A stretch of 42,918 nt of DNA from a phage, in the NCBI GenBank assembly GCA_025726505.1, contig GCA_025726505.1_4340.1, one strand, 5' to 3'. The notes under the pieces were generated by a model. That model worked only from the letters and a program-made list of their open reading frames with translations. It ran no database searches and was not told where the DNA came from. A program made the position numbers and the translations under genes. Positions 3,150 through 42,918 of this stretch are shown one piece after another (the stretch's first letter is position 1; each line of letters opens with the position of its first letter).

Positions 3150-3180
3150 CTTCTCTCTCTCCTCTCGCTTCGATAACTGA

Positions 3181-3209
3181 ATAGTATTCTATTATATCTG
3201 TGTGTGCAA
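3181..3209 (-). promoter_or_regulatory. Promoter-like element copy A (TTGCAC-N17-TACTAT with internal AATAG-N4-CTATT)
   Basis: Minus strand reads TTGCAC (3209-3204), 17-nt spacer, TACTAT (3186-3181); near-identical to copies at 4359-4387, 25820-25848 and 35100-35128. Confidence 0.5.
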
Positions 3210-4324: not shown

Positions 4325-4358
4325 AACCCTCGCTCCTCTGTCTCGTTCCGATAAGTGA

Positions 4359-4387
4359 ATAGTATCCTATTATGTTGGGGTGTGCAA
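4359..4387 (-). promoter_or_regulatory. Promoter-like element copy B (TTGCAC-N17-TACTAT)
   Basis: Minus strand TTGCAC (4387-4382), 17-nt spacer, TACTAT (4364-4359); leader TTATCGGAACGAGA..GAGG resembles the leader after copy A. Confidence 0.5.
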
Positions 4388-4634
4388 GAGAATAGTTACG
4401 TTGCCGTTGTGATTCTTCTGAGAAGGTTGTGCCTTTATTCTTATTACTTGGTAACTAAAGGGCAGGCCTTAAGCCTGCCCAATAATCGTTACATTTTTAC
4501 GGTTGCGAATCTACGGCACTTTAAGAAAATCAGATACTTAAGAGATATGCTGCCGATGAGAATAGAGCTTGCCCAGGGCAACCGGAGATACTAAGGAAGG
4601 AAAGTTACAATAATTCGAATGTTCAGTAAACTTT

Positions 4635-4678
4635 CGCTTAACACTTTGCTTGCGCTGCGCGCAGCTGCGTTTTAAGCG
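4635..4678. repeat. Nested inverted repeat in divergent control region
   Basis: CGCTTAA (4635-4641) pairs with TTAAGCG (4672-4678), enclosing perfect 12-bp palindrome GCTGCGCGCAGC (4654-4665). Confidence 0.6.
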
Positions 4679-4767
4679 GTTTTACAAGGTGAACAGGAAT
4701 CAAAGTAACTAAGATATAGAAGCACCTTAAACGAAGATTTTCATAATGTCAATAGGTGCGATTATGT

Positions 4768-4796
4768 TTGATTTCCCATTATTCTCAATGTATACT
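4768..4796 (+). promoter_or_regulatory. Sigma70-like early rightward promoter
   Basis: TTGATT (4768-4773), 17-nt spacer, TATACT (4791-4796), about 30 nt upstream of the first rightward ORF. Confidence 0.45.
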
Positions 4797-4828
4797 CTGT
4801 TTCGTTAACTGATGATGAGGGTTTGAGA

Positions 4829-4999
4829 ATGACACAGAATGAGGTAGCTGAGCGTATTGGGGTTACTCGCCGCACGCTTAATAACTGGTTAAAGAGTGGG
4901 AAGTTCCCGGATTGTTGTATCCGTATTATGGGTCGCCGGCAGCCTGGTACGTTCGACCCAGAGAAAGTGGAAGCGTGGATTAAGGAGAACGTTAAATGA
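4829..4999 (+). CDS. Small HTH DNA-binding protein (AlpA/excisionase-type fold)
   Basis: 56-aa ORF QNEVAERIGVTRRTLNNWLKSGKFP...FDPEKVEAWI; GAGG RBS; ATGA overlap with next gene; preferred over track ORF 4896-5084 in another frame. Confidence 0.55.
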   Translation: MTQNEVAERIGVTRRTLNNWLKSGKFPDCCIRIMGRRQPGTFDPEKVEAWIKENVK

Positions 5000-7529: not shown

Positions 7530-7539
7530 GTAGAAAGAA

Positions 7540-7556
7540 AGGGGCGTTAAGCCCCT
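7540..7556. terminator. Hairpin between convergent primase and XRE genes
   Basis: AGGGGC (7540-7545), loop GTTAA, GCCCCT (7551-7556); overlaps the 3' end of the minus-strand XRE gene. Confidence 0.45.
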
Positions 7557-7762
7557 TCACCGAACGCCAGCCACTTGGCGTCTACTTGTAGCACTCCCGC
7601 CAGTTTAAACAGCGTCGCCGGGCGGACGTCCTGAGTTACACCGAGTGCTAGCTGGTTAATTGCGCCCTGGGAAACGCCAGCCATGACCGCCAGACGGCGC
7701 TGGGAGATGCCGAGTTCTTTACGGCGTTGTTCTACGCGAATGCCTAGTTCAGATGGTTGCAT
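7547..7762 (-). CDS. XRE-family (Cro/cI-type) HTH transcriptional regulator
   Basis: 71-aa product with canonical HTH LGISQRRLAVMAGVSQGAINQL; divergent from the rightward operon. Confidence 0.8.
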   Translation of the reverse strand: MQPSELGIRVEQRRKELGISQRRLAVMAGVSQGAINQLALGVTQDVRPATLFKLAGVLQVDAKWLAFGEGA

Positions 7763-7790
7763 GTTAATTACTCCTTAGTTAGTCAATATG

Positions 7791-7809
7791 TGAATAGTAC
7801 CATATTAAT
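7791..7809. promoter_or_regulatory. Operator-like motif copy (TGAATAGTACCATATTAAT)
   Basis: Imperfect copy of the AATAG-N4-CTATT core, 29 nt upstream of the XRE gene start. Confidence 0.4.
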
Positions 7810-7826
7810 TATTTTAGAAAAGCCCA

Positions 7827-7856
7827 TTGACAACATGAATAGTTAGCTATTATAGT
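7827..7856 (+). promoter_or_regulatory. Sigma70-like promoter with overlapping palindromic operator
   Basis: TTGACA (7827-7832), 18-nt spacer, TATAGT (7851-7856); spacer contains AATAGTTAGCTATT (7838-7851); 32 nt upstream of ATG 7888. Confidence 0.55.
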
Positions 7857-7887
7857 TAGCCCATACCAAACGAGAGGAGAGAAACAA

Positions 7888-8388
7888 ATGTTAGAGAAAT
7901 TCTTAGTATTACTGGAACGTTTCGTAGTTGCGCATGAACTTATTGCTGCGAATAGTGCGAAAGAACCGGTGATTGGCTCACCAGAACATTTTGCTGAGTT
8001 TTGTAAGCTGCAAGGTGTAAGTGTAAAAGAGGCTTTAACTAAACCTTCAAAAGAAATCCCGGTCGAAGGGGAAGACATCGTCGACACTAAACCGGCAGAA
8101 GAAGAGAAGCCGAAACGCAAGCCGCGTAAAGCTAAAGTAGAGGAACCAACGCCAGAGCCGGAAGAAGAGAAAGAAGAGGTCGATTACCAGTCTCTTCGGG
8201 ACCAGATTCAGGCTATCGACGATGCAATTATCGAAGGTCCGAGCGATGCCGCGTACGATGATTCTGATGAACTTCTGGAAGAGTTCACCGGTAAGAAAAG
8301 GAAGATTGCTGCGATTAAAGACGAAGACCTGGCTGAATACCTGGAACGCCTGACGGCAATCAAGAACAAGTATTTCGAAGAAGAATAA
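7888..8388 (+). CDS. Hypothetical highly acidic protein with Lys-rich insert
   Basis: 166-aa ORF, GAGAGGAGAG RBS; Glu/Asp-rich (EEPTPEPEEEKEE, ends KYFEEE) with KPKRKPRKAK patch. Confidence 0.7.
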   Translation: MLEKFLVLLERFVVAHELIAANSAKEPVIGSPEHFAEFCKLQGVSVKEALTKPSKEIPVEGEDIVDTKPAEEEKPKRKPRKAKVEEPTPEPEEEKEEVDYQSLRDQIQAIDDAIIEGPSDAAYDDSDELLEEFTGKKRKIAAIKDEDLAEYLERLTAIKNKYFEEE

Positions 8389-8431: not shown

Positions 8432-8635
8432 ATGGCTATTTTAGCTAAGAAAAGTGGTCTTATGATTTCAGGGCGAGTTATAGAAGAAACAGATAGCTTT
8501 GTATGCTTCCACGCGACAGATAACAAACGCCCTACGTATGTACAAAAGTCGGATAAAACACAAAAAGTTTTCGACGGTGATTTTTCTATGGATGACGTTT
8601 TCGCGTGGATTAATTCTGTGAGGGTAAAGAAATGA
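8432..8635 (+). CDS. Hypothetical protein
   Basis: 67-aa ORF, GAGGG RBS, ATGA overlap with next ORF. Confidence 0.55.
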   Translation: MAILAKKSGLMISGRVIEETDSFVCFHATDNKRPTYVQKSDKTQKVFDGDFSMDDVFAWINSVRVKK

Positions 8636-10170: not shown

Positions 10171-10199
10171 TTGACACCTGAATAGTTAACTATTATAGT
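10171..10199 (+). promoter_or_regulatory. Sigma70-like promoter with perfect palindromic operator
   Basis: TTGACA (10171-10176), 17-nt spacer, TATAGT (10194-10199); spacer contains perfect 14-bp palindrome AATAGTTAACTATT (10181-10194). Confidence 0.6.
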
Positions 10200-10257
10200 T
10201 CTAATCACTGGCCGGGCAGCTCCCGGAGTAAACGAAACTTAAAAGCGAGAAATCACG

Positions 10258-10887
10258 ATGGGTATTAAACTGAATCTGCGTAAAGTAAACACTGCTTGGG
10301 TTAACGTATTCGAACGCGAAAAAGACCGTGAAAACGATGATGGCTCAATCACTAAAGGTCAGTACAGCGCTACTATTATCCTGCCGTCCGACCACGCGCA
10401 AATCGACGCGCTCTACGACACCGTTTACGCGGTAGTCGAAGAAGCGTTAGGCGCCGCCGCTGCCGAGAAATGGATGAAGTCCAACTACGGCGAAGGTAAG
10501 CACATGGATAAATGTGCGATTAAAGACATTGCCGAGCGCGACAATCCGTTCGAAGACTTCCCGGAAGGCTTCTACTTCAAAGCGAAGGCGCAGAAACAGC
10601 CACTGATTGTAACCTCTAAAAAAGGTGAGACTCAGGTAGAGCAGGACTTCAACGTAGACGGCGAACAGATTGAAGGTGAACAGGTTTACAGCGGATGTGT
10701 AGCCAATGTAAGCGTCGAAATCTGGTTCAGCCAGAAATACAAAGTCCTCGGCGTTAACCTGCTGGCGATTAAATACGTCGGTGAAGGTAAAGCGTTCGGT
10801 GGTTCTAAAGCCGCCGCAAGCGTCAATGACCTGGAGGACGACGAAGAAGATGAAGTGCCACGCCGCGAACGTCGTCGCCGTGGTTAA
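10258..10887 (+). CDS. ssDNA-binding / annealing protein, T7 gp2.5-like (tentative)
   Basis: 209-aa product; by-eye resemblance to gp2.5 (NPFEDFPEGFYFKAKA vs MPFFDNGDGTTTFKFK; LLAIKYVGEG); acidic tail NDLEDDEEDE then RRERRRRG. Confidence 0.5.
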   Translation: MGIKLNLRKVNTAWVNVFEREKDRENDDGSITKGQYSATIILPSDHAQIDALYDTVYAVVEEALGAAAAEKWMKSNYGEGKHMDKCAIKDIAERDNPFEDFPEGFYFKAKAQKQPLIVTSKKGETQVEQDFNVDGEQIEGEQVYSGCVANVSVEIWFSQKYKVLGVNLLAIKYVGEGKAFGGSKAAASVNDLEDDEEDEVPRRERRRRG

Positions 10888-13426: not shown

Positions 13427-13575
13427 CAATGCTTGTATTTTGGACGATAGTAACCATGCTCGCACTTCTACTCGGTGCGGGAATAGCCGCGATGTTCTGC
13501 TATGGCCTGTTCTTTAATTTTGTCGGTGTTGCCGTTCTGGGCGGGGCATTTATAACTTGGGTTCTGCGCTCATGA
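13423..13575 (+). CDS. Candidate 50-aa membrane micro-protein
   Basis: Two hydrophobic segments; ATGA-coupled to the VRR-NUC gene. Confidence 0.3.
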   Translation: MTMLVFWTIVTMLALLLGAGIAAMFCYGLFFNFVGVAVLGGAFITWVLRS

Positions 13576-13886
13576 CCCCGGAAGGAAAAATACAGAAATA
13601 CGCAAAAGAGCGATTCGAGGCCATCGGGGGCCTCGTCCGTAAACTGTCTTATGAGGGGCGCTCCGGCGCTCCCGACCTGCTGGTAATTCTCCCGGGCGGC
13701 ATCGTCTGGTTCGTCGAGGTGAAGAAAGACGAAAGCACGAAGCCTGACCCACACCAGTTACGAGAGCATGAGCGGATGCGTAAACGTGGCGCAAATGTTT
13801 TTGTCGTTGGTTCGATAAAACAGATTGACACCCTAATAGCAGACTATTATAGTAAGCACATACCCCAACAATATAAGGAATTATAA
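13572..13886 (+). CDS. VRR-NUC domain nuclease
   Basis: PD-(D/E)xK core GAPDLLVILPGGIVWFVEVKK...REHERMRKRGANVFVV; start at ATG 13572 (track start 13557). Confidence 0.75.
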   Translation: MTPEGKIQKYAKERFEAIGGLVRKLSYEGRSGAPDLLVILPGGIVWFVEVKKDESTKPDPHQLREHERMRKRGANVFVVGSIKQIDTLIADYYSKHIPQQYKEL

Positions 13887-25819: not shown

Positions 25820-25848
25820 TTGCACACCCCAATATAATAGGGTACTAT
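25820..25848 (+). promoter_or_regulatory. Promoter-like element copy E (TTGCAC-N17-TACTAT)
   Basis: TTGCAC (25820-25825), spacer ACCCCAATATAATAGGG, TACTAT (25843-25848); 28 nt upstream of ATG 25877. Confidence 0.55.
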
Positions 25849-25876
25849 TCACATGTAACTTACTGAGGAAATAATT

Positions 25877-26203
25877 ATGCGTAAATTAGTACTAGCTCTG
25901 GGTTTTATGTCTTTTGCTACTTTTGGGTCTCCGTGCGAACAGGTATTTAGTGAATCTGTTCTTATGACTTCTGGTGTGCTCGAGAAAGCCGACCCTACTA
26001 TTGTAAAGGCGTTCAAGGACTCTACAGTTCGCGAGTGTGAGGCCGCCGTGGAGGTTGGTAAATCGGGCCTACCCCCGCAGGCCGTAACCTACACAGTGAT
26101 ACGTTCGGTAGAGAAAAACGGAGATGCTTTCTATAGCCTACTGACAGCCACCCGTCTGCAAATGGTAATGACAGGGTGGGCGATAGGCGCAGAAAGTAAA
26201 TAG
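25877..26203 (+). CDS. Small secreted/periplasmic protein (signal peptide)
   Basis: 108-aa product with N-terminus MRKLVLALGFMSFATFGSPC; two Cys; GAGGAA RBS. Confidence 0.6.
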   Translation: MRKLVLALGFMSFATFGSPCEQVFSESVLMTSGVLEKADPTIVKAFKDSTVRECEAAVEVGKSGLPPQAVTYTVIRSVEKNGDAFYSLLTATRLQMVMTGWAIGAESK

Positions 26204-26268
26204 TCGCCTTTATTTAAAGGAATGCACTGTGGTTAAATAGGACAAATCCTAAACACGAGGAAGTAAGC

Positions 26269-27399
26269 ATGGCCCAGAAGAAAATAACCGACGAACAGTT
26301 ACAGGAAGAATTGAACGCCGGGATGAAGATTATTGATATCGCCCGTAAATACGGCATCTCAGACCGCGTTATTCGTATCCGTAAAGCGAAGCTGGCTAAG
26401 AAAGGTGTAGGCCACGGGCGCGACGTTAGTCACCTTGTGCCGGACGGCTACAAGATTAAAGGCACGTCGTCCCTGGTGGACGAGTTCGGCAACACTAAGT
26501 TGCAATGGGTTAAGACTGACACCGATGCTGAACGTCAGGTCGAGTTGATGAAAGCCGTAATTGAAGGCATGAAGTCAGAGATTACACCTGTTGCGCCGGT
26601 TAAAGCCGTTCGCACCAAACGCGACGACAAGCTGCTCAACCTTTACACCGTGTCAGATTTCCATCTCGGTATGCTGGCATGGGCCGACGAGAGCGGCGAC
26701 GACTGGGATATGAAGATTGCGGAAGGCCTGTTCTCTCGATGGTTCGACGCGGCGTTTCAGAAAGCGCCGGACGCGGGAACAGGTGTTATTAACCTGCTAG
26801 GTGACCTTGCGCACTTCGATAGTCTGGTTGCCGTTACACCCGCAAGCGGTCACGCCCTTGACGCCGACACCCGTTATCAGAAACTTGTCCGTTACATGAT
26901 TCGTATGGTCCGCCGTGTCGTTGATATGGCGTTGGTTAAGCATAAAAATGTTCGCTTGCTTATCGTGCAAGGGAATCACGACGAATCGGGTATGATTTGG
27001 TTGGCTGAGATGTTCAGTACGCTGTACGACAATGAGCCGCGCGTGTTCGTCGATACGTCGCCGGATGTTTACAAGATGGTGCAACACGGCAAAACTACGC
27101 TGTTCTTCCATCACGGGCATAAAGCACGATTCGACGCTATCGAGCCTGTGATGATTGCCAAGTTCCGCAAAGCGTTCGGCGAGAGCGTCTATAGTTACGC
27201 ACATGTAGGACACCTTCACCACCAGAAGATTGTTGAAAGCCGTAATATGGTTGTCGAACAACATCGCACCCTGGCGGCTAAAGACGCCTACGCCTCCCGA
27301 GGCGGCTGGATGTCAGGTCGTAGTGCAAATGTAATTACTTATAGCGCCGAATACGGCGAGGTCGCACGTTTAACTATTTCACCGGAGATGCTGGGATGA
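26269..27399 (+). CDS. HTH-domain fused to calcineurin-like metallophosphoesterase
   Basis: N-terminal HTH (IIDIARKYGISDRVIRIRKAK) then phosphoesterase motifs SDFHLG, GDLAHFD, QGNHDE, FFHHGH, HVGHLHH; GAGGAAG RBS. Confidence 0.75.
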   Translation: MAQKKITDEQLQEELNAGMKIIDIARKYGISDRVIRIRKAKLAKKGVGHGRDVSHLVPDGYKIKGTSSLVDEFGNTKLQWVKTDTDAERQVELMKAVIEGMKSEITPVAPVKAVRTKRDDKLLNLYTVSDFHLGMLAWADESGDDWDMKIAEGLFSRWFDAAFQKAPDAGTGVINLLGDLAHFDSLVAVTPASGHALDADTRYQKLVRYMIRMVRRVVDMALVKHKNVRLLIVQGNHDESGMIWLAEMFSTLYDNEPRVFVDTSPDVYKMVQHGKTTLFFHHGHKARFDAIEPVMIAKFRKAFGESVYSYAHVGHLHHQKIVESRNMVVEQHRTLAAKDAYASRGGWMSGRSANVITYSAEYGEVARLTISPEMLG

Positions 27400-27629
27400 T
27401 TAAAGCCTTGTGGATTTTCGTCATAATGCCGATTGTTATTTTACTGGTTTTATCTATCGCGGTGATAGGCATGGCGACGGTCTTAACCTTTATCTCTATG
27501 GATTTGTCCGTGTTCTCTGGCCTGTACGAAGCTGTTACTGCGATAGCGCCGACCGCGATGCGTCTTTTATATGTAGGTGCTGTTGCTATTTCGGCAGTTA
27601 TCGTTCTGATTGATGAGAGCTATTTATGA
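27396..27629 (+). CDS. Small polytopic membrane protein
   Basis: 77-aa product, almost entirely hydrophobic; ATGA-coupled on both sides. Confidence 0.6.
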   Translation: MIKALWIFVIMPIVILLVLSIAVIGMATVLTFISMDLSVFSGLYEAVTAIAPTAMRLLYVGAVAISAVIVLIDESYL

Positions 27630-27856
27630 CTTCAAAATACGACCGAACTATGACAAACACCCACGGCAGTACAATGACTGTTGATGTCTACGATGTGCTC
27701 CGCGCTTTCGACATCCGCGACCCGGCGTTACAGCACGCATTGAAAAAGCTGTTGTGTATGGGGCTACGCGGACACAAAGACACAGGTACAGACTTAGACG
27801 AGGCAATAGAAAGTCTGGAGAAGTTACGGGAATACCGGAGTAATATTGATGAGTGA
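27626..27856 (+). CDS. Hypothetical protein
   Basis: 76-aa ORF, ATGA overlap with membrane protein gene. Confidence 0.5.
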   Translation: MTSKYDRTMTNTHGSTMTVDVYDVLRAFDIRDPALQHALKKLLCMGLRGHKDTGTDLDEAIESLEKLREYRSNIDE

Positions 27857-34824: not shown

Positions 34825-35031
34825 GCTAGTCCTTATCATTTAAACATAAAAACGGCGTAATCTCAGTAAACCAGCTACTTTTTACACAAGCAATAGAGTA
34901 TGGCCCTTCCGAACGCGTCAGCGTAACTACACTCAGGACTTACGTCCCGCTCCGTTACCTGCCCGCGCCGCGGTCGCTTGTTCATACTTCACAAGCTCAG
35001 GTGGAGCTTAGCACATTTTCAGTGAAAAGTC

Positions 35032-35047
35032 AACTATTCGAATAGTT
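35032..35047. promoter_or_regulatory. Perfect 16-bp palindrome AACTATTCGAATAGTT
   Basis: Self-complementary; abuts a minus-strand TTGACT -35-like hexamer; related half-site array at 34262-34299. Confidence 0.55.
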
Positions 35048-35099: not shown

Positions 35100-35128
35100 T
35101 TGCAGACACCAATATAATAGGGTACTAT
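35100..35128 (+). promoter_or_regulatory. Promoter-like element copy F (TTGCAG-N17-TACTAT)
   Basis: TTGCAG (35100-35105), spacer ACACCAATATAATAGGG, TACTAT (35123-35128); 27 nt upstream of ATG 35156. Confidence 0.55.
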
Positions 35129-35155
35129 TCAGTTAACTTAAACAGGAGATGAAAA

Positions 35156-35971
35156 ATGAAACATGTAATCAGTTTTTCAGGCGGCAGAACATCAGCGTAC
35201 ACAACCCTTGAAGTGCTTAAACTTCACCCGGATGCTGAGGTTATTTATATGGATACCGGGGCGGAGCACCCAAAGACCTACGAGTTCATCCGTAATTTTG
35301 CTAAGCACTTTAATATTACGGTGACGTGCCTGCGGGTTGTTCCTAACCCAGAAATGCGTAAGGCCAGTACCTATGAAGTCCTTAGCGTAGATGAAATAGG
35401 TCCTGACCTGGAGCCGTGGCGCAGAATGCTGCGCAAGTACGGTCACCCATACGTCGGCGGCGCGTTCTGCACAGACCGGATGAAGACGGTGCCGTTCACC
35501 AAATACTGCGACGAGAAATACGGCAAAGGAAATTATGAGCGCTGGTTGGGAATTCGCTGTGACGAGCCAAAACGACTTGGCAACCGTGGACCGGGATTCC
35601 ATTACCTTGCAGACATTAGCGACTTCGAAAAGCAAGACATACTCGAGTGGTGGTCGCAACAATCATTCGACCTTGGCATTGAAGAACACTTAGGTAACTG
35701 CGTATTTTGCATCAAGAAGAGTTTACAGAAGGTTGCACTAGCGGCGAAAGACGAGCCACAACTCGCAGCGGAGTTCTGGCAGATGATTCAGGACGAAGAT
35801 AAAAAGGACGACAAGGTAATGTACCGTTCGAACCGGAGCCTTGGCGAGGTCATCGCTTTGTTTGGCAGTGAAGACCGCGCAGAACTTGCGGTCCGTATGC
35901 GCTCAATGCGGCAGTACGACACAGGGTCATGTAGTGAAAGTTGTGAGGCATTTTCTTCCGAAGAATACTAA
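35156..35971 (+). CDS. PAPS reductase-family PP-loop enzyme
   Basis: N-terminal PP-loop HVISFSGGRTSAY; C-terminal Cys motifs GNCVFC and GSCSESC; single opposite-strand gene inside the head module. Confidence 0.75.
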   Translation: MKHVISFSGGRTSAYTTLEVLKLHPDAEVIYMDTGAEHPKTYEFIRNFAKHFNITVTCLRVVPNPEMRKASTYEVLSVDEIGPDLEPWRRMLRKYGHPYVGGAFCTDRMKTVPFTKYCDEKYGKGNYERWLGIRCDEPKRLGNRGPGFHYLADISDFEKQDILEWWSQQSFDLGIEEHLGNCVFCIKKSLQKVALAAKDEPQLAAEFWQMIQDEDKKDDKVMYRSNRSLGEVIALFGSEDRAELAVRMRSMRQYDTGSCSESCEAFSSEEY

Positions 35972-42867: not shown

Positions 42868-42896
42868 AATATAATTGGTGTAAGAGTAATAGTCAA
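42868..42896 (-). promoter_or_regulatory. Sigma70-like early leftward promoter
   Basis: Minus strand TTGACT (42896-42891), 17-nt spacer, TATATT (42873-42868); upstream of a chain of small minus-strand ORFs. Confidence 0.5.
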
Positions 42897-42918
42897 CTAG
42901 TCATTGCAGAAAATAGAT

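Follow-up and report, generated by a model that had tools for sequence, protein, structure and literature searches.

In the window, that is, the whole stretch of 42,918 nucleotides analyzed here, the leftward gene of a small XRE-type regulator and the rightward gene of an acidic protein of unassigned function diverge from a shared control region. The features of this locus are the following:

7533-7558, minus strand: intrinsic terminator of XRE (RNA fold of -14.8 kcal/mol, z=-3.2, followed by UUUCUUUCU)
7547-7762, minus strand: XRE gene, encoding a 71-aa Cro/C1-type HTH protein, the proposed repressor
7793-7806: imperfect candidate operator AATAGTACCATATT, with one mismatch in the right arm, over the -10 element (TACTAT, minus strand, 7794-7799) of XRE's own weak promoter
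7827-7856, plus strand: promoter of the acidic-protein operon, TTGACA (7827-7832)-N18-TATAGT (7851-7856)
7838-7851: candidate operator AATAGTTAGCTATT, in the spacer of the acidic-protein promoter
7888-8388, plus strand: acidic-protein gene (166 aa)

The other neighbor of XRE is the primase-helicase gene, which converges with it; the XRE stop codon (TAA) is located in the loop of the terminator, between the two genes. Given this terminator of its own, XRE forms a one-gene unit.

The phage belongs to the genus Kagunavirus (Guernseyvirinae) and is a virulent coliphage, a siphovirus about 90% identical to Escherichia phage SZH-1. The annotated relatives are reported as lytic, and neither an integrase nor a cI gene, nor any lysogeny module, is annotated in SZH-1, Jersey, PVP-SE2, and K1G. 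The genome is laid out as follows:

leftward: block of small genes and lysis genes
4823-4999, plus strand: gene of a 58-aa HTH_17 protein (Pfam HTH_17, E=2e-7), the first in the primase-helicase operon and a rival candidate for binding the palindrome described below
rightward: replication block, from the HTH_17 and primase-helicase genes through to the helicase gene, with the leftward XRE gene as its sole interruption
leftward: structural blocks, which contain two rightward islands
25877-27856, plus strand: island 1, a 108-aa gene and, after it, a gene with an SZH-1 ortholog annotated as phosphatase
35156-35971, plus strand: island 2, a PAPS-reductase-like gene

Between the leftward block and the HTH_17 gene, a 450-bp segment (4372-4822) contains no convincing gene; it includes what looks like a bidirectional terminator (4460-4480) and, on each strand, matches resembling consensus promoters, several in all, and could harbor a replication origin or a small RNA. 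An Rfam search returned no match anywhere in the window. In the only Kagunavirus transcriptome, that of vB_Eco_K1B4 (PMC12645636), only four phage genes are classed as early, one of them a helix-turn-helix gene (008), and a 'specific DNA binding' gene (004) that adjoins an AAA-domain gene is classed as middle. This RNA-seq study is coarse, with ambiguous gene numbering, and allows no unambiguous mapping of these genes to XRE or to its putative targets.

The XRE protein matches the Pfam family HTH_3 well above the family cut-off (E=5.1e-12; 46.1 bits against a cut-off of 23; residues 11-65), and its best sequence match in the PDB is phage 434 Cro, likewise a single-domain protein of 71 aa, with which it aligns end to end (E=4.4e-7; residues 6-68 of XRE on 4-64). 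A single-sequence AF2 model (pLDDT 83.5) contains helices at residues 5-17, 21-28, 32-39, and 48-57, and a Foldseek comparison of this model with the PDB yielded HipB, 434 Cro (40% identity), the 434 repressor, SinR, C.BclI, and P22 c2 as the top matches, with TM scores of 0.65-0.72. The model indicates a compact, all-helical fold of the Cro/cI type. HipB, 434 Cro, SinR, P22 c2, and the C proteins are dimers that bind palindromic sites. The only other small HTH protein that Pfam detects in the window is HTH_17.

A palindrome in the core promoters

The first-pass annotation, made from the letters alone, had pointed to two operator-like copies in the XRE control region and to a perfect palindrome ahead of the SSB-like/DNA polymerase segment. 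All the strings it quoted are found in place (TGAATAGTACCATATTAAT at 7791-7809, AATAGTTAGCTATT at 7838-7851, and AATAGTTAACTATT at 10181-10194), and both copies in the control region are present, but the XRE-proximal one is imperfect. The promoter spacer of 18 nt that it reported is right for 7827-7856; the promoter at 10171 is of the same design but has a spacer of 17 nt. The palindrome was also described as overlapping the -10 region in both promoters; in fact, in the TTGACA-type promoters it lies almost entirely in the spacer, and the last T is the only base that it has in common with the -10 hexamer. Finally, the sites that it named belong to a larger set that it under-counted, with a third promoter of the same design, four of a second design, and about 10 promoters in all. 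Apart from those of the XRE control region, the sites and their promoters are:

10171-10199, plus strand: promoter of the SSB-like/DNA polymerase segment, TTGACA (10171-10176)-N17-TATAGT (10194-10199)
10181-10194: perfect palindrome AATAGTTAACTATT within this promoter
13825-13853, plus strand: third promoter of the same design, TTGACA-N17-TATAGT, with AATAGCAGACTATT (13835-13848)
3180-3209, minus strand: second-design promoter, TTGCAC (3204-3209)-N17-TACTAT (3181-3186), with palindrome AATAGTATTCTATT (3180-3193) over the -10; orthologous site in K1G
4358-4387, minus strand: second-design promoter, TTGCAC (4382-4387)-N17-TACTAT (4359-4364), with palindrome AATAGTATCCTATT (4358-4371); also in K1G, SP-101, and L129
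25820-25849, plus strand: second-design promoter of the 108-aa/phosphatase island, TTGCAC-N17-TACTAT, with palindrome AATAGGGTACTATT (25836-25849)
35100-35129, plus strand: second-design promoter of the PAPS-reductase-like gene, TTGCAG-N17-TACTAT, with palindrome AATAGGGTACTATT (35116-35129)
35025-35038: probable weaker site AAAAGTCAACTATT, one mismatch, covering the -35 (TTGACT) of a promoter read leftward; kept in K1G and SP-101
42888-42901: probable weaker site AATAGTCAACTAGT, one mismatch, over the -35 of the leftward promoter TTGACT-N17-TATATT (42868-42896)

The palindrome AATAG-N4-CTATT is far more frequent in the window than expected by chance. The 42.9 kb contain seven exact copies, whereas 100 first-order Markov simulations produced 0.02 on average and never more than 1; in these simulations, no palindrome of the 5-N4-5 form, whatever its sequence, occurred more than three times. 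When up to three mismatches are allowed, 26 matches are found where 5.05 would be expected. Every one of the seven exact copies is located inside a sigma-70-type promoter, immediately 5' of a gene start. Three further copies with one mismatch (7793, 35025, and 42888) are conserved in relatives; the last of these is retained in K1G, Jersey, PVP-SE2, and SP-101, and its promoter is annotated in Jersey and PVP-SE2.

Judged from the sequence, each of these ten sites falls on a core promoter element: the spacer at 7838, 10181, and 13835; the -10 and the start site at 3180, 4358, 25836, 35116, and 7793; and the -35 at 35025 and 42888. The target promoters combine near-consensus hexamers with optimal spacers of 17-18 bp, and those at 7827, 10171, and 13825 give the three highest-ranking matches to the sigma-70 consensus within the first 20 kb, each agreeing at 11 of 12 positions. 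In the second design, TTGCAC-N17-TACTAT, which holds four exact copies of the palindrome, two leftward and two rightward, the palindrome covers the -10. The two rightward islands, surrounded by the leftward structural region, are each preceded by a TTGCAC-type promoter with the palindrome.

The promoter and operator at 13825-13853 are embedded in the last 60 nt of an ORF (13557-13886), with the palindrome within the last 50 nt, so that conservation of the arms and protein coding constrain the same bases. The promoter is conserved in seven distinct Kagunavirus versions. The ORF itself has a sub-threshold Pfam match to VRR_NUC (E=0.0048; 17.4 bits against a cut-off of 23.8), and its SZH-1 ortholog is annotated VRR-NUC.

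The weak promoter of XRE bears its copy (7793-7806) directly on the TACTAT element, the arrangement expected of an autoregulated gene. This 14-mer is nearly invariant among the distinct Kagunavirus versions, and a generalized form of the site is found 42-52 nt 5' of the XRE start in every lineage examined. Hardly any -35 element is recognizable in the Kagunavirus XRE promoter (CTTTTC). The distance between the two operators of the XRE/acidic-protein region (loci L008-L088) is 44-45 bp in Kagunavirus (39 loci), 55 bp in Jerseyvirus (13 loci), and 64-65 bp in phages of the STM-ZS/AH01 type (6 loci), which corresponds to 4.2, 5.2, and 6.1-6.2 helical turns, that is, to the same helical phase. The conserved phase hints at cooperation between proteins bound on the same face of the DNA, although, with only three spacing classes, it is suggestive only.

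Two other elements were noticed near these promoters. Downstream of the 10171 promoter, the leader of the SSB-like gene (10212-10226) contains a conserved hairpin, CCGGG-CAGCU-CCCGG. The block that holds it (CACTGGCCGGGCAG...CCCGGAGTAAAC) is conserved like the promoter, even where the SSB-like protein is only about 45% identical over the N-terminal 70 aa; the loop is variable, two of the five pairs show compensatory changes (CCCGG/CCGGG, CUCGG/CCGAG), and no Rfam family matches. The hairpin may be an mRNA-stabilizing or autoregulatory element. Just 5' of the promoter of the HTH_17 operon, CAATAGGTGCGATTATG (4751-4766) resembles an imperfect Jerseyvirus operator, AATAGAGTACGATTATAG, but has a center of 3 bp against 4 bp, and is possibly a decayed or variant site.

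Conservation of the palindrome

Orthologous upstream regions were collected from 80 IMG/VR loci and several complete genomes and anchored on the starts of the downstream genes, not on the motif; for the distant lineages, a finder of strict consensus promoters recovered too few sites, and gene-start anchoring took its place. Of the acidic-gene promoter, 28 distinct versions from Kagunavirus and Jerseyvirus were compared: the left arm never changes, the right arm has a single variable base, and the central 4 bp vary. The arms are also kept in the 28 distinct versions of the SSB promoter, with conservation of 0.9-1.0 in the left arm and 0.6-0.8 in the center; the 4 nt that separate the -35 from the left arm are variable. 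The 45 distinct Kagunavirus sites carry 29 different centers. The element has the makeup of an operator of the 434 Cro type, namely, a twofold-symmetric site, about 14 bp long, whose outer bases are conserved and whose center is free.

The position of the palindrome relative to the promoter is not fixed. Depending on the promoter, it starts 4-5, 7, or 10 nt after the -35 hexamer, and in PVP-SE2 (L003) the same imperfect 14-mer is present in opposite orientations, as AATAGAGTACGATT at the acidic-gene promoter and as AATCGTACTCTATT at the SSB promoter (8436-8449 and 10846-10859). These three registers, together with the occurrence of both orientations in one genome, indicate that the palindrome is independent of promoter geometry. 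Furthermore, the left arm is located in the sigma-70 spacer, for which polymerase has no base preference, and the sites at 10181 and 13835 are flanked by rightward genes, so that neither polymerase contacts nor a divergent promoter explains the conservation. Such a pattern is the signature that a site for a twofold-symmetric protein is expected to leave. The dimeric Cro/cI-type operator arrangement that had been proposed on first inspection is thus upheld, at the sequence level, by the conserved arms, the free center, the independence of register, the overlap with core promoter elements, and the copy on the XRE promoter.

The AATAG palindrome ranks first among the 5-N4-5 palindromes in each of the Kagunavirus and Jerseyvirus genomes and loci examined, with 2-6 exact copies per stretch of at most 16 kb in 46 of 46 IMG/VR loci, and is absent from those IMG/VR loci in which the XRE homolog is less than 50% identical. 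A reverse scan of the viral collection with an operator plus -10 pattern returned multiple hits per contig in Guernseyvirinae exclusively; unrelated viral contigs gave single matches lacking a -35. Two other readings of the palindrome were discarded: as an RNA hairpin, it folds no better than shuffled sequences (-2.3 to -2.5 kcal/mol; z of -0.15 to -0.65), and as a restriction site, it would not be expected to vary with the phage lineage rather than with the host, as it does.

A different palindrome, TTACC-N7-GGTAA, was observed in a group of IMG/VR loci (L067-L073) with an XRE homolog that is 42-44% identical and has the helix TKQQTIQQ; there are four copies each in L067-L070 and L072 and five in L073, with L071 as the exception. 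These copies resemble the operators of another, unrelated group of phages, probably temperate ones, that encode a 434-Cro-like protein.

Candidate binding proteins

We infer that the palindrome is bound by XRE, as a dimer, with repression as the outcome. This assignment was offered by the first-pass annotation as the obvious one; it is favored by the 434-Cro-like HTH_3 domain and by the covariation of the operators with the XRE helix, but was made too quickly, because HTH_17 co-occurs perfectly with the exact AATAG motif. AATAG-N4-CTATT probably serves a dimeric repressor of the phage as its operator, and the 71-aa XRE protein (7547-7762) is the most likely such repressor.

The main competitor is the 58-aa HTH_17 protein (4823-4999), in which case the palindrome would be a genuine operator with a different binder. 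Every Kagunavirus and Jerseyvirus locus encodes HTH_17, no lineage without the exact AATAG motif does, and all 443 phage records that carry it are Kagunavirus or Jerseyvirus. Given that the protein and the exact motif share the same distribution, the presence of the motif in the 46 loci does not by itself single out XRE. Between Kagunavirus and Jerseyvirus, HTH_17 is 84-90% identical and its helix, VTRRTLNNWL, is the same in the window and in Jersey, as are the operator arms, whereas XRE is only about 51% identical and differs at 4 of 8 positions of the recognition helix. Moreover, the promoter of the HTH_17-primase operon (4768-4796) contains no canonical palindrome, as would be expected of an early regulator; this promoter may escape the control discussed here.

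The operators of relatives help to weigh the two proteins against each other. The recognition helix of XRE is VSQGAINQ in Kagunavirus, VSQSLITH in Jerseyvirus, MTQGGIGH in Pantoea phage AH01, and VTQSAISH in STM-ZS. AH01 has no exact AATAG palindrome and instead carries five exact copies of AATAC-N4-GTATT, at the orthologous promoters of both designs and at the XRE promoter; 13 of its 16 arms read AATAC, and in the ortholog of the 25820-25849 promoter both arms have changed (TTGCAC-N10-AATACAATAGTATT). STM-ZS has four sites of the form ATTAG/AATAC. The palindrome-in-promoter design persists with variant arms in AH01 and the STM-ZS group, in which no HTH_17 homolog was found (the best tblastn match has E=0.011, in a gene that Pfam does not assign to HTH_17). 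Flank position -1 also differs between the genera, unlike the HTH_17 helix: it is T in 32 of 32 half-sites that accompany the Jerseyvirus helix, and G, T, C, and A in 34, 44, 6, and 6, respectively, of 90 that accompany the Kagunavirus helix. In L129, XRE is 75% identical overall and yet retains both the Kagunavirus helix and sites of the TGAATAG type. The variant arms in phages without HTH_17, the flank that tracks the XRE helix, and the L129 case favor XRE over HTH_17, and the comparison supports a change of the operator variants in step with the XRE recognition helix. The STM-ZS sites count against this assignment, being asymmetric, which is unusual for a homodimer, as do the XRE-bearing lineages L074-L084, in which no palindrome is recognizable at the equivalent promoters. 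An XRE-like protein with 50% identity and no motif (L054) was set aside on account of its unrelated genomic context and different helix.

For HTH_17, no solved relative was found, and a repeat search for a separate target of this protein in 4330-4830 produced only weak two-copy matches. Small Xis/MerR-like HTH_17 proteins typically bind direct repeats, which also speaks against this protein as the binder of a palindrome. On balance, we consider HTH_17 an unlikely owner of these sites.

If XRE is the binder, it could still act mainly as an activator or a dual regulator, for example, by stimulating its own weak promoter from the neighboring operator in the manner of lambda cI at PRM. The near absence of a -35 from that promoter in Kagunavirus, the location of the neighboring operator, centered about 57 bp 5' of the predicted start, and the conserved helical phase between the two operators are all compatible with such a role. 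The target promoters, however, are near-consensus, with 17-18 bp spacers, and need no activator; the spacer and -10 placements are those of a repressor, and spacer-binding activators of the MerR type require spacers of 19-20 bp. Predominant activation by XRE therefore appears quite unlikely.

The symmetry might also reflect promoter architecture, with the arms serving the host polymerase as -10 parts of overlapping divergent promoters and no dedicated regulator involved. At divergent intergenic positions, some sites can indeed be read on both strands as -35/N17/-10 promoters that share the palindrome: that at 27267 of PVP-SE2 as TTGCAT-N17-TATTAT and TTGACG-N17-TATTAA, and that at 25836 of the window as TTGCAC-N17-TACTAT and GTTACA-N17-TATATT. 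The right arm is, in part, promoter-constrained, given that the -10-proximal half (...TATTATAGT) is conserved in all lineages, including those without the palindrome. However, the sites at 10181 and 13835 are flanked by plus-strand genes only, where a leftward promoter is unneeded, and yet the left arm in the spacer is conserved like the hexamers. The three registers relative to the -35 would be left unexplained as well, and the concerted change from G to C in both arms in AH01, along with the other variants in STM-ZS and Jerseyvirus, which have Salmonella hosts in common, could not arise from an unchanged sigma-70. These observations make a purely architectural origin very improbable.

Recognition by a host DNA-binding protein, to which the AT-richness of the palindrome and a superficial likeness to some enterobacterial operator half-sites (TGAAT...) might point, is extremely unlikely, considering that the variants follow the phage lineage, with Jerseyvirus (AATAG/AATAG) and STM-ZS (ATTAG/AATAC) both infecting Salmonella, and that the contigs with multiple hits in the reverse scan are all Guernseyvirinae.

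A Cro-like regulator in Guernseyvirinae

With XRE as the probable repressor, its mode of action can be outlined as follows. One XRE dimer would occupy each operator, with one recognition helix per arm and the central 4 bp free of contacts, as in the 434 operators, and, bound on a core promoter element, would exclude the host RNA polymerase. The target promoters would be active immediately upon infection and, because of their near-consensus hexamers and optimal spacing, would not need an activator. As XRE accumulates from its weak, self-limited, one-gene unit, the promoters of the replication genes, of the leftward block of small genes and lysis genes, and of the two rightward islands would be turned down; at higher XRE concentrations, the one-mismatch copy on its own -10 would mediate negative autoregulation.

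As such, a repressor of the Cro type that acts through palindromic operators in core promoters is of a classical kind. The 434 operators are 14-bp palindromes, and the sites described here resemble those of 434 OR and OL in length, in the conserved outer bases and free center, in the overlap with core promoter elements, and in the presence of a copy in the regulator's own control region. Unlike in 434, however, the half-site is AATAG rather than ACAA, and the phage lacks a partner cI repressor, an integrase, and an immunity region. The 434 operators are clustered in threes at two sites, whereas here single operators are distributed over about 10 promoters around a virulent genome, and the 434 Cro gene is the first in the early rightward operon, whereas XRE is monocistronic and divergent. 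The control region shares with the lambdoid cI/Cro PRM/PR region the back-to-back divergent promoters, each with an operator, the weaker operator at the regulator's own promoter, and the helical phasing; it differs in having only two operators and one regulator gene, in a lytic phage with no annotated lysogeny module, and the partner cI-type repressor and integrase of a lambdoid immunity region are missing. C proteins and regulators of the HipB/SinR type have the same fold as the XRE model, and the known ones bind palindromic promoter boxes as dimers, but XRE, with its own terminator, adjoins neither the restriction-modification genes that accompany a controller protein nor a co-transcribed toxin gene of the kind found in HipB/HigA toxin-antitoxin modules.

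What is new is the placement of this system in a virulent phage subfamily, its spread over about 10 promoters, and the concerted change of the operators with the repressor helix. A literature search found no paper with these 14-mers or with a description of this promoter set; in the annotations of Jersey and PVP-SE2, several of the promoters are predicted, but the common operator is not. As a bolder and more doubtful, although possible, extension, this virulent subfamily might run most of its transcription via one Cro-only circuit, in which a single 71-aa repressor would gate about 10 host-type promoters (its own, those of the replication genes, of the lysis and small-gene block, and of both accessory-gene islands, and a leftward pair on the structural side), with phased operators in the control region and at least three co-evolved specificities (AATAG, AATAC, and ATTAG/AATAC).

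Of the phages isolated for therapy and biocontrol of E. coli and Salmonella, the Guernseyvirinae (Kagunavirus and Jerseyvirus) are among the most frequent, and they are in use as small engineering chassis. Their gene regulation is essentially undescribed, and genome papers label XRE just as a 'repressor', sometimes with concern about a temperate lifestyle. The operator assignment would explain the presence of a Cro-like gene in a lytic phage and would supply a map of promoters and control sites on which engineering could draw. The operator variants of the different lineages would provide a natural system in which a repressor and its whole operator set change specificity together and, if the assignment is true, the at least three natural specificities would amount to ready-made orthogonal repressor/operator pairs.
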